A stretch of DNA of 64,000 nucleotides from Eledone cirrhosa (taxonomy: Eukaryota), in the NCBI GenBank assembly GCA_964016885.1, contig OZ024757.1, forward strand, positions 4,402,001-4,466,000, in the 5' to 3' direction. The translations under genes and the position numbers were made by a program. How positions within the stretch are numbered: position 1 is the stretch's first letter; the number at the start of each line of letters is the position of its first letter. Shown piece after piece: positions 15,957 to 61,131 of the stretch. The notes below the pieces were generated by a model. The model searched no databases. It was not told the origin of the DNA and was given only the letters and a program-made list of their open reading frames with translations.

Positions 15957-17062
15957 AGGATTATCCTGGATGCAGTAATGATTAATTACTACACTGGATA
16001 GAGTTGGCGTACGAGTTATGGAAGAATAGTTGAAGAAACTCAGTTCCTGATCCTTCTGTATTCTGGAGTGTAGATAAAGAATGAATAATAACAGGTAGAC
16101 ATCATAAAAAGGTAATTTATTCTGTGTTCTTACAAATGTTTCCACGGTGGTTATACAGCCTAGTTATGCTATGTGAAAATTTATAACTATTTGCAAAACT
16201 CAATTATCAAATGCTGTGACCACTGTATCCTCAGAGCAGAATGGTTAAAATGTAAAATGTAAATACCCTTAAGTGAGGTTATTGGGGGAAGATAGAGTAG
16301 AAAAGGAAGAGAGAAAGAAGGGGAGAGGGAGAGAGAGAGAAAGATATGCAGGGGTTGGAGAAATGGGAGAGAGTGGTTTGTAGAATATAGATATCTTAAT
16401 CAAAATGTTGTGGTAGGGGTTTTGTTATACTGGTCACTCTTAAAGCGACCACCTTAAGCGATTCGTTGATAGTCAAGATTGGAATTATTTATTGCCACAG
16501 AGGGCAGGTTCATAGATGTGGAGAGGCAGGGTGTTGGACCGAGGGCGAGAGAGAGAGAGGGGAATGGAGAGAGAGGGAGAAATAGAGAGGGGACAGACGA
16601 AAGCGATGGGATGGGTGTACATTGAGTTCATAGTTGTAGGCTACAAATTGCACTAAGTTTCCATTTATAGTGATAAGCAGGGTATTGTCTTGTAGTGTGG
16701 GGGAATAGAAAGTGGTTAGCTAGAAAGCAATGTTATAGTTACGGTTTCGAATGCTAAGTTATTTTATAGTGAGAGAATTTAGCCTTCAGTTTGTGGTTGC
16801 AGTATAATGATCGTTCGATTCTATCATTTAGTAATTTATTTTTGGATTCTAAGATGTAAAAGAGTTCAAGGTTACATAACCTACAGTACTTCAATCCACT
16901 CCGATATGCACTAGCGCTGGAAAGTATATCCCATTTCAAGGTGAACTGTTGGTTGCGTTCACGGAGTTGCCAGGTCTTGTTGGCGAGCGTGGTCACAAAA
17001 CGGTGATTAGGATGTTTAATTGAGAATCGATGACGATACCAGAGAGATTTAAAGGAGGTAGT
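15957..17062 (-). mobile_element. Naiad-type PLE 3' fragment
   Basis: GIY-YIG C-terminus FKSLWYRHRFS..LKWDIL..CRLCNLE..CNH (16754-17062), followed by a 3' UTR and HHR. Confidence 0.8.
16121..16240 (-). ncRNA. Hammerhead ribozyme with branched stem II insertion
   Basis: CT-CTGAGGA-TACAGTGGT..ACAGC[two hairpins]GCTGT..ACCACCGTG-GAAA-CATTT-GTA-AG..AATAAA. Stem I is short. Confidence 0.7.
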
Positions 17063-17179
17063 GGTATATATATACATATATATATACATATGTACATATA
17101 TATATACATATATATATACATATATATATAATAATAATATTATTTATACTTATATATACACTATATATAATTATAAACA

Positions 17180-18350
17180 GGAAAGGTCAGTAATTCATTT
17201 CCACCTTATTACCAGTAAGAAAAATTGCTCAATGTAAATACATCATATGTTTTACAGAGCTGGAATATAAATTACAGAATAATCAAAACTATGTTCAAAA
17301 CATTTTATTGCTAACAATCGTTTCTTCCAAAGTTTCGTTTGGAATCATCGGAGCACTAGCAAAGTTTAGACATAATTAACCTCCTATTCCACAGAATAAT
17401 TGTAAAGATACGTAGATGTTAGTGTTGTCATTAACAGTGTCATATTCAAAGATTGAAGATGATGTGGTCAGTGTCAGTGGATGCGACAAAGATTATAAAA
17501 GAATAATACAACAATTATAGAGGAATTGAACAAGAAAGTTACTCGCAAAATGAGGACATTAGCGGTACATATACAAACGTAAGGAAAGAGTGCAGAGGTT
17601 TGTATATTGGTCCTATTACAATCTTATCAAGGGTTCGAGTTTTCTAGAGTGATCTGTCTAACGGTTTAATTTCAGGAAGTGATTAGAGATCTACACTAAG
17701 GGGAGTTAATGGGAAAGGGGAGGTAATTGGCGATTAATTTGTGTATAAGAAAAACTCTAATTAGTTAAATTCTATGTGTTAATATACAATATATTATGGT
17801 ATAAGTGAATCCTTTTATATAATGCTATTTATTTTTAAATTTATATATTTAATTTTATATACAATCTTTTTTCTATATGATACCTTAAAGGTCTCATTTT
17901 ATTACTACCTACCGATATATTAATTAAATGAATAAAATATTAGTAAGGAAGTTATAGTAGTTATATTAAATGGTGGTAAATTTATGTTTATTCCTAATAG
18001 TTATTGTAGAGTATAAGATCTGAGATAAACAGGAGATAAGTAGAGGAATGAGCTAATCATAGAATGTGATGTTGTGGGGGTAATTATATGCTGATAAAAC
18101 CTAGGGGTAAAGTGTTAACGGTGGTGAGGAATCCAGATCTGACGTTGTTATATACTAGCAGCTAGGTTTAAAGTTGTGGAAAGAGTGTCGGTGGTAGTGT
18201 TGGCAAATGGTAAAAATTTCTGATTTTCTAAGAGGTTTAGCTTAGAATAGATTATAGTGCGGGTTTCTAGAAGACAGAGGTTACGTAATTTATTCGGTGG
18301 TTTATAGGTTGCGGCTTTACCTATTACTTCCCATTGAAGTGTAAGGCTGC
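17180..18350 (-). mobile_element. Naiad-type PLE 3' fragment
   Basis: 18200-18350 on the minus strand translates LQWEVIGKAATYKPPNKLRNLCLLETRTII..KSEIFTICQH. HHR lies downstream. Confidence 0.7.
17309..17355 (-). ncRNA. Hammerhead ribozyme (U4C)
   Basis: TGCT-CCGATGA-TTCCAAAcgaaacTTTGGAA-GAAA-CGATT-GTT-AGCA-ATAAAA. Confidence 0.8.
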
Positions 18351-18503
18351 ATCGTATAAACCACCGAATATATGCTATTTTAAAAAATACACAGTGACTG
18401 AACAGCCAGTCTGCTAATATGCAAATCAGGCTAACCAGTCACTGTGTATTATTTAAAATAGCATATATTTTCACTAACTCTGACAGTTTGGCAGGTGAAC
18501 AGT

Positions 18504-18553
18504 GAGCTGTACTGATGAAGGGTGATACCCAGAAACATTAGTGTCCGCAGTTC
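18504..18553 (+). ncRNA. Hammerhead ribozyme, family C
   Basis: GAGCTGTA-CTGATGA-aGGGTgatACCCa-GAAA-CATTAGT-GTC-CGCAGTTC, within element 18367-18720. Confidence 0.8.
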
Positions 18554-60100: not shown

Positions 60101-60130
60101 ATATATATATATATATAGAGAGAGAGAGAG

Positions 60131-60915
60131 ATAATTTAATATATCTACTAACATAAGCGCACAGATGTACGCTAATGCCAGCAAATACACAGGTTATGTC
60201 ATAGTACCTAGGTGGTACAATGCAGGAGAATGCAGAACAATAATATAAAAGACGTAAAATAAGAAAATTTAAAAAAAAAATTTTTTTTTTAAATTAACTT
60301 ACTTACTTAAATTTTCACTCCAACTAATTAGTTTCTGCAATAAAATTTTCTTATTTTACGTCTTTTATATTATTGTTCTGCATTCTCCTGCATTGAACCA
60401 CCTAGGTACTATGACATAACCTGTGTATTTGCTGGCATTAGCGTACATCTGTGCGCTTATGTTAGTAGATATATTAAATTATCTATATTTATCTCCAAAT
60501 CACTGATTTGTCGAGCAAACCTGCCAAAACCACTTCTAAATTTTTTTGGGGGTGTAGTAGGCGCCTGTCATCTTACCATCCCATTCCTACTGACTAGCCT
60601 CTGTGTCACGTGATTGATTCTTCAGAATCAGCCATATGATCAGTGGCAGTGAGAATTTTCGGTAGCTGGAATCCAGTCCTCGATAGCTGTTCCATTTACA
60701 GAATTATTATTATTTTTATATGAGTCCCCAGTGTCCGCGCATCGCCTGGAGACTCGGCTGAGAATGACCTCCCTGATGACGCAATGAAATTCTCAACAGT
60801 TCATTACGTAACTGTCTTTATCCCATTGCAGAAACTAATTAGTTGGAGTGAAAATTTAAGTAAGTTAATTTTTAAAAAAAATTTTTTTTTTAAATTTCTT
60901 ATTTTACGTCTTTTA
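60131..60915. mobile_element. ORF-less HHR element, family A (about 550-nt redundant unit plus inverted partial copy)
   Basis: Same architecture as 11524-12476 and homologous to it. Confidence 0.8.
60769..60848 (+). ncRNA. Type I hammerhead ribozyme, family A
   Basis: CTCC-CTGATGA-cGCAATG..ACAGTT/AACTGT..CATTGCa-GAAA-CTAATTA-GTT-GGAG. Confidence 0.85.
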
Positions 60916-61039
60916 TATATATATATATATATATATATATATATATATATATATATATATATATATATATATATATATATGTATAGTTAAAGAATGAAGA
61001 GTAACATGGTTGCCTGTACACTAAGGGGATTTATTTAAA

Positions 61040-61131
61040 GTACTGACAATTGTTTCGTTGATCAGGTGTGTCTAGAGTTCGCTAATCGATCTCCAATACA
61101 TTATTTACCACTGGTCAACACATCAGAGTAC
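61040..61131 (-). ncRNA. Hammerhead ribozyme (A9U) with long loop II
   Basis: GTACT-CTGATGT-GTTGACCAG[about 45 nt]CTGATCAAC-GAAA-CAATT-GTC-AGTAC-tttaAATAAA. Confidence 0.75.

Follow-up and report, generated by a model that had tools for sequence, protein, structure and literature searches.

Enlarged, structured stem II in hammerhead ribozymes of Eledone cirrhosa Penelope-like elements and retrozyme-like repeats, with a predicted pseudoknot to stem I in one class

Do hammerhead ribozymes (HHRs) with an unusually large stem II form a class of their own, and what might the extra RNA do? The question is raised by a 64,000-nt stretch of Eledone cirrhosa DNA (contig OZ024757.1, positions 4,402,001 to 4,466,000; G000:C18:4402001-4466000), hereafter the window, which comes from an AT-rich 3.0-Gb genome and is dense in (TA)n tracts and in Penelope-like element (PLE) fragments. 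A first-pass annotation had noted a large loop II at seven sites, named here by position (4948, 16121, 25885, 46779, 47476, 56794 and 61040), and in an undefined "family A", and had proposed a single "giant loop II" class whose insert may bind the PLE reverse transcriptase or supply the contact that links stem I to stem II. The reading that we favour, and think likely, is that these are type I HHRs of PLEs and of non-coding, tandem, retrozyme-like derivatives, and that the derivatives use the enlarged stem II as a Watson-Crick pseudoknot docking arm to stem I.

All seven sites and family A are HHR-shaped motifs of type I, with a stem II of 36-97 nt (Table 1), so this part of the annotation stands. 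A CUGANGA / GAAA / UH core lies around three helices, stem I being open, and the order of parts is core, stem II, GAAA, stem/loop III (6-8 nt, palindromic or nearly so), UH and stem I. Family A is probably represented by four related copies (6087, 11777, 12350 and 60773) with inserts of 50-51 nt. Core variants are fixed in some subfamilies, U4C at 56794 and 25885 and A9U in part of the family that holds 46779 and 61040 (family C); since several subfamilies with fixed U4C, and others with fixed A9U, have amplified, these variants did not stop amplification. Such core variants were seen at 56903-56909, 25940-25946 and 17345-17351 of the window, and also at loci L059 and L132.

A descriptor scan of 264 kb (the window plus 20 neighbouring 10-kb stretches) returned 37 motifs, in 13 of which stem II reached 35 nt or more. 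The same scan found nothing in any of three dinucleotide shuffles, so the motifs are not due to chance. Genome-wide pattern searches gave 6,512 matches for family A (control 1), 1,281 for the 47476 family (family B; control 1), 5,071 for family C (control 2), 389 for the 16121 family and 1,505 for the 4948 family, with controls of 0-2 across these five families. DNA searches gave 1,805 first-look candidates for 56794 and 1,593 for 25885, with 40 scored for each. HHR pattern matches summed over the families searched exceed 20,000. Every site thus has hundreds to thousands of family members in the genome, and its insert is not peculiar to one copy. A census of 1.75 Mb, biased toward the families searched for, contained 527 distinct motifs in 40 clusters, of which 21 had a median stem II of at least 40 nt (counted after one antisense artefact had been dropped); stem II length was continuous across the 40 clusters, from 12 to 116 nt. 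The longest found are nearly fully paired rods of 105-116 nt (L035:8792-8940, L064 and L401). Among the most numerous is F23, a family with U3-A8 core covariation (L393-L417) and 591-bp tandem units, which has at least 7,597 pattern matches together with F36.

The comparison with Rfam models that had been suggested was run, and the hammerhead clan (CL00010), whose core consensus these families have in common, gave no match at gathering score in 14 sources (104,395 bases) containing them. Among the weak Rfam matches listed for the window (150 of 270), the only hammerhead is a short-stem copy at 32322-32392, with 29 bits versus 52. The sites had also been said to have no shared sequence; this does not hold, since 46779 and 61040 are subfamilies of family C, and a profile search links family C to the 16121 family (E 1.7e-7).

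We then built alignments by family, with near-identical copies (>95%) removed beforehand and two rows removed before the family B trees. Changes on both sides were found in 12 of 44 pairs in family B (five of 13 in the first hairpin, with 91.9% of cells paired), in 8 of 27 in family A (five of seven in the inner hairpin) and in 13 of 37 in family C. On a tree of flanking DNA, at least five separate compensatory events fall in the family B insert, some through G-U intermediates, and changes in loop III of this family, including double changes, preserve the palindrome. Covariation supports helices in the alignments of families A, B and C and of a further family, D, and the view that the inserts are conserved and structured at the family level is supported by these comparisons. 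Copy-specific or unstructured inserts, which the first-pass annotation had named as evidence against its own proposal, are not what the families contain. Single copies folded significantly better than shuffles at 47476 (z -3.9), 4948 (-2.8), 61040 (-2.4) and in family A (-5.7, -4.0, -1.8), and not significantly at 16121 (-1.3), 56794 (-1.1), 46779 (+0.15) and 25885 (-0.1, for a range one base off). The weak scores are explained by decay of several window copies; that at 46779 has lost about 22-25 nt of its insert and has a U4A core.

Two hairpins had been seen at 16121, 47476 and 56794. The observation is right for 47476, the only truly branched insert among the cited sites. For the other two we rejected the two-hairpin form on the family alignments: an alignment of 26 copies from the 16121 family shows a rod whose single inner hairpin is mutated in the window copy, and diverged relatives of 56794 do not keep the first hairpin. 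The three-way-junction plan consists of a basal helix, a junction strand of 5-6 nt, a hairpin, and a second hairpin with an internal loop. Family B and two other families have this same plan, with no similarity by profile search and with different pairing sequences, and it reflects either deep descent with full sequence turnover or convergence. Three families of this type, unrelated in sequence, each have a distal hairpin with an internal loop of 5x4-5x5.

In one group of families, which we call class 1, the 4-7 nt directly 5' of stem I (the leader) are complementary to the 5' loop or junction strand that lies past the 5-9-bp basal helix of stem II. Scored on folded structures, the helix joining a family's own leader to its own loop reached a high value in 8 of the 21 families with a large stem II, against 40 of 420 pairings across families (permutation p 0.00015). 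When positions were fixed and nothing was folded, the counts became 10 of 21 versus 44 of 420, and none of 5,000 permutations reached the sum. Three other strand pairings, used as polarity controls, were positive in 0, 1 and 2 of 21 families (p 0.66, 0.50 and 0.80). The folded test dropped the mis-parsed cluster F11, the antisense artefact F28 and copies with the leader in (TA)n, and the fixed-position test dropped one artefact (G32). The pairing sits 0-4 nt from stem I and 0-3 nt from the basal helix of stem II, its polarity would match parallel stems I and II, and stem II measures 44-97 nt in the positive families. At least four predicted Watson-Crick pairs between the peripheries of stems I and II were found in class 1 only. 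Further, of 21 sequences from family D, 11 have U-A and 8 have C-G at one pseudoknot pair; at the next pair, 7 have U-A and 4 have A-U, and two separate compensatory events can be placed on the tree. Two single copies with broken pairing were predicted to be CpG-decayed, and in fresh copies the pairing was restored in the majority; these copies come from the two families that have the junction plan of family B. A pairing of the junction with loop III in the 47476 copy was rejected, as it depends on a copy-specific change. Just upstream of the family B leader, at 47447-47463, there is a conserved AT-rich hairpin, present in most subfamilies.

The single class that had been proposed is not supported: the families fall into at least two architectures, which have different hosts and share some descent. 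Class 1 comprises families A and B and, elsewhere in the genome, D, F23/F36, F30, F32, F34 and F35. A linked open reading frame (ORF) was looked for in the class 1 families and none was found. Five families, all pseudoknot-positive and F34 and F35 not among them, consist of tandem non-coding units with one HHR each; their periods are 483, 571, 591, 743 and 829 bp, and the longest ATG ORF has 27-75 aa. In the window, 46935-47025 repeats the 3' end of its own 47476 unit (a partial tandem). A long array of the family D unit occurs at G000:C1:92.99-93.02 Mb, with a period of about 660 bp and subtype patterns repeating at higher order.

Class 2 comprises the 16121 and 56794 families and family C, plus F24 elsewhere. 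These HHRs sit on the 3' side of ORFs that contain the Hydra-clade CxCx5C linker, 330-1,080 nt away, at a constant distance for 16121 (about 500 nt) and 56794 (330-640 nt) and a variable one for family C, with one locus for F24; RWK and DKT motifs are present at family C loci. Pfam gave no match for the linked ORFs, and their Hydra-clade label rests on motifs. A link to Naiad was rejected because the endonuclease of these ORFs is C-terminal, whereas that of Naiad, whose HHR is of a "half-core" form, is N-terminal. Six loop III motifs searched in the supplement of PMC8557442 gave one match, in a coding region. The HHRs of class 2 have a long bulged stem I and a rod-like stem II of 81-94 nt with invariant loop bases, and showed no clear pseudoknot; in the 56794 copy there is a possible weak pairing of 56917-56913 with 56872-56868. 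The suggestion that the insert supplies the contact linking stem I to stem II has direct sequence support in the retrozyme-like families and does not extend, as a clear pseudoknot, to class 2. The 4948 and 25885 families are unbranched and were assigned to neither class.

Several results weigh against a docking pseudoknot. Two of the ten fixed-position positives overlap the basal helix and were not counted, leaving eight clear families, and 11 of the 21 large-stem families show none. The position windows were drawn from five families within the test, and only F35, F36, F30 and F34 are out of sample; since F35/F36 are related to D/F23, some of the families tested depend on one another. The second covarying pair of family D fails to pair in 7 of 21 sequences. 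The strands of families A and B are nearly invariant (double changes in 0 of 6 and 0 of 4 pairs), so the pairing there rests on position, conservation and cross-family comparison. The leader can alternatively fold back on stem I as a hairpin of 2-4 bp. As to the inserts themselves, RNAalifold unaided recovered only six pairs in family C, and controls were not exceeded for further pair types in family B (307/500) or for double-change pairs in families C (69/500) and D (440/500). Finally, genomic 5' breakpoints are not clearly enriched where family A is predicted to cleave: 36 matches (control 14) fell at that site, and 17 (control 0) at a position eight bases upstream; among 100 matches listed, five lay within 4 bases of the site, two of these at the same fold-back locus, and many are fold-backs at a short self-complementary stretch. 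The lack of a clear genomic cleavage trace is in line with uncleaved RNA being reported as the main in vitro substrate of one PLE (PMC11167929). Fold-back junctions centred on the family A cleavage site were seen at L306 and L315/L316, and short self-complementarity may explain them.

Could the inserts be tolerated, nearly neutral expansions, kept paired to spare the core, with a leader complementarity that is a coincidence inherited from few ancestors? Loop II of engineered HHRs accommodates large inserts, and the continuous range of stem II lengths, the window copies that fold no better than shuffles and the relatedness of some pseudoknot-positive families would fit such an origin. It would not account for the compensatory pseudoknot changes of family D, for different pairing sequences at the same positions in unrelated families, for the null polarity controls or for the conserved junction geometry, and we regard it as improbable. 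For class 2 and for the 4948 and 25885 families, neutral expansion is fairly plausible.

If the pseudoknot forms in RNA, the leader would pair with the 5' strand that stem II presents in its internal loop or three-way junction; stems I and II would then be held next to each other, and self-cleavage would be faster. The insert helix that starts right after the pairing strand may stack on the pseudoknot as a scaffold. Two neighbouring tandem copies could pair through the palindromic loop III and complete stem III, as known for minimal HHRs, and cleavage would free unit-length RNAs, to be circularised and copied in trans by a PLE reverse transcriptase. In the Hydra-ORF-linked families, the weaker part of this proposal, the conserved rod beside the long bulged stem I may make a non-Watson-Crick loop contact. 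The leader pairing might also act in the opposite sense, by inhibiting or switching the ribozyme so that it stays off in circular monomers, instead of bracing it for activity. Regulated cleavage would fit circular RNA replicons (PMC4209133), loop interactions control cleavage in a natural satellite HHR (PMC6155905), and the alternative hairpin of the leader with stem I points the same way; against this, strand polarity and spacing match what would be expected of an active fold in which stems I and II lie parallel, and inhibition appears very improbable to us.

A different role for the enlarged stem II is that of a protein-binding module, with the PLE reverse transcriptase or a host chaperone recruiting or activating the ribozyme and the pseudoknot being secondary. 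One PLE HHR cleaved only with the element's protein added (PMC11167929), the distal hairpin that recurs in three unrelated families is not needed for the pairing itself, and class 2 rods have their invariant loop bases. Given that insert sequences and sizes vary widely among families, and that such a module leaves the polarity-specific complementarity unexplained, we consider it unlikely as the main function; it is compatible with pseudoknot docking, not exclusive of it. Reverse transcriptase binding through the insert, above all through the distal hairpin and in class 2, is possible. Taken to its limit, the two ideas would merge into a natural "aptazyme" subclass, in which the stem II junction docks stem I by the pseudoknot and the conserved distal hairpin binds the Penelope reverse transcriptase, coupling self-cleavage of parasitic retrozyme RNA to capture of its copying enzyme, with whole families, including the "missing" ones of other PLE clades, hidden in animal genomes by the caps that descriptors put on loop II; this is a speculative and rather unlikely extension.

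How do these ribozymes compare with those described before? That PLE HHRs have a very short stem II, the premise of the first-pass annotation, is at odds with their description, in which helix II is "larger than usual" (6-8 bp) and stem III is what is minimal (PMC4209133). Our families resemble these minimal PLE HHRs (Cervera and De la Pena 2014, PMC4209133) in the short stem I, the extra base before stem II, the tiny palindromic stem III, a U3-A8 core variant (here F23), the pseudo-long-terminal-repeat (pLTR)/3' location and the dimer-type design. The difference lies in stem II, published as a helix of 6-8 bp with a small loop and here 36-116 nt long, containing internal loops or a three-way junction, and predicted to take part in a pseudoknot; minimal PLE HHRs are said to be without the characteristic tertiary interactions (PMC6155905). 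Thus the short palindromic stem/loop III is found here, and the 6-8 bp helix II without tertiary contact is not.

With HHRs of Hydra-clade PLEs (Craig et al. 2021, PMC8557442), class 2 has in common the RWK, DKT and CxCx5C motifs of linked ORFs, (TA)n targets, an HHR near the 3' end and, in some families, U-U at the base of stem II. All Hydra rows of File S2 of that paper, however, have a stem II of 3-7 bp and a loop II of 3-10 nt, against 81-94 nt in the Hydra-linked families here; the nearest large loops in this source are about 30 nt, in two spike-moss EN-minus (endonuclease-minus) elements marked as deviating. Animal non-LTR retrozymes (PMC7229834; bioRxiv 10.64898/2026.07.22.740005) are likewise non-coding tandem units with one type I HHR each and PLE-like insertions, and our unit lengths fall within the 51-972 bp of the preprint. 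Their described HHRs are canonical, with a 4-bp stem II and loop-loop contacts, or, in mussel, are without the archetypal contact bases and have no described substitute; the portions of these sources covered contain no stem II that is enlarged or branched.

Pseudoknotted HHRs (Perreault et al. 2011, PMC3088659) show the same pairing of at least 4 bp between the peripheries of stems I and II. About 40% of HHRs were predicted there to be pseudoknotted, disruption lowers the rate, compensation rescues it, and the pseudoknot is required for fast cleavage. In the text of that paper a short stem II contributes a terminal loop or tail to the pairing; here a large stem II contributes its internal loop or junction, and the HHRs are repetitive type I forms of an animal with a minimal stem III. 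The literature searched yielded no PLE or retrozyme HHR whose natural stem II is described as enlarged or branched; Lunse et al. 2017 (PMC5785218) and the supplements of PMC4209133, PMC3088659, PMC7229834 and the 2026 preprint could hold such cases. Minimal PLE HHRs, retrozymes and pseudoknotted HHRs are thus each known, and that literature contained no combination of them in which a large stem II docks the pseudoknot in its internal loop or junction.

PLE and retrozyme hammerheads have been reported as poor in vitro cleavers without the contact that usually joins stem I to stem II, and the families described here offer a concrete, mutable candidate for one. With more than 20,000 pattern matches they are numerous enough for selection to act through many subfamilies. 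Published core-spacing descriptors allow 7-17 nt (PMC8557442). Since our families were missed by Rfam and lie beyond these descriptors, counts of animal ribozymes and claims of PLE clades without HHRs merit a renewed search with a wide loop II. The natural three-way-junction insert could also serve as a template for ribozyme-switch design.

Table 1. Hammerhead ribozymes and associated features in the window (window coordinates; HHR, hammerhead ribozyme; RT, reverse transcriptase; EN, endonuclease)
Feature	Position	Strand	Stem II (nt)	Remarks
Class 1 HHR (47476, family B)	47464..47607	+	97	Three-way-junction stem II, 47487-47583 (basal helix and two hairpins); core 47480-47486; GAAA 47584; loop III palindromic; cleavage predicted after 47595; pseudoknot predicted between 47471-47474 and 47497-47500, with one altered base here
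Non-coding unit of about 750 bp carrying the 47476 HHR	46935..47790	+		Ends in (TA)n
Family A HHR (class 1)	12334..12432	+	50	Internal loop in stem II; predicted cleavage after 12420; predicted pseudoknot 12336-12340 with 12365-12369
Family A HHR	11695..11793	-		Inverted relative to its partner, the 12350 copy; pseudoknot predicted between 11791-11787 and 11762-11758
Family A HHR, other subfamily	60757..60856	+		Compensatory stem II changes; predicted pseudoknot 60760-60765 with 60789-60794
Family A HHR	6004..6093	-		5'-truncated at (TA)n; leader strand of pseudoknot missing
Class 2 HHR (16121)	16119..16250	-	85	Rod-like stem II; long bulged stem I; family about 500 nt 3' of the end of a Hydra-type endonuclease ORF
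Class 2 HHR (56794)	56785..56925	-	94	U4C core in subfamily; one conserved inner hairpin
Class 2 HHR, family C (61040)	61033..61142	-	63	Family 81-82 nt; 19-nt deletion; A9U core common to its subfamily
Class 2 HHR, family C (46779)	46770..46872	+	56	Decayed copy: insert deletion, U4A core
HHR (4948)	4941..5032	-	45	Unbranched stem II (bulged hairpin); no pseudoknot signal
HHR (25885)	25879..25962	-	36	Stem II only modestly enlarged; 11-bp stem I; U4C core in 16/17 family copies
Penelope-like RT ORF	50198..52045	-		Hydra-clade RWK and DKT motifs (motif list from PMC8557442)
Penelope-like RT-EN ORF	44523..45980	+		Hydra-type CxCx5C linker; link to HHR at 46786 unsure, (TA)n tract intervenes

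The output of a general repeat finder on the window was dominated by (TA)n, and the weak Rfam matches were set aside as microRNA look-alikes sitting on (TA)n and inverted repeats. One of them, a long inverted repeat at 60181-60432 scored below gathering as MIR841, is not a microRNA gene; it corresponds, in inverted arrangement, to the 3' end of the family A unit. Fragments of elements of the long interspersed nuclear element (LINE) type with an apurinic/apyrimidinic (AP) endonuclease lie at 21088-23659 and 39930-41497. A four-copy HHR family (8831, 11279, 36314 and 37883) has a 26-nt stem II and lies 755 nt 3' of a Hydra-type endonuclease fragment; it could instead be the "family A" of the first-pass annotation. 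Finally, short-stem HHRs (17-18 nt) occur at 19697, 28930, 31723 and 52897, 190-470 nt behind the end of a Neptune/Nematis-like endonuclease, and constitute a natural short-stem control within the same genome.

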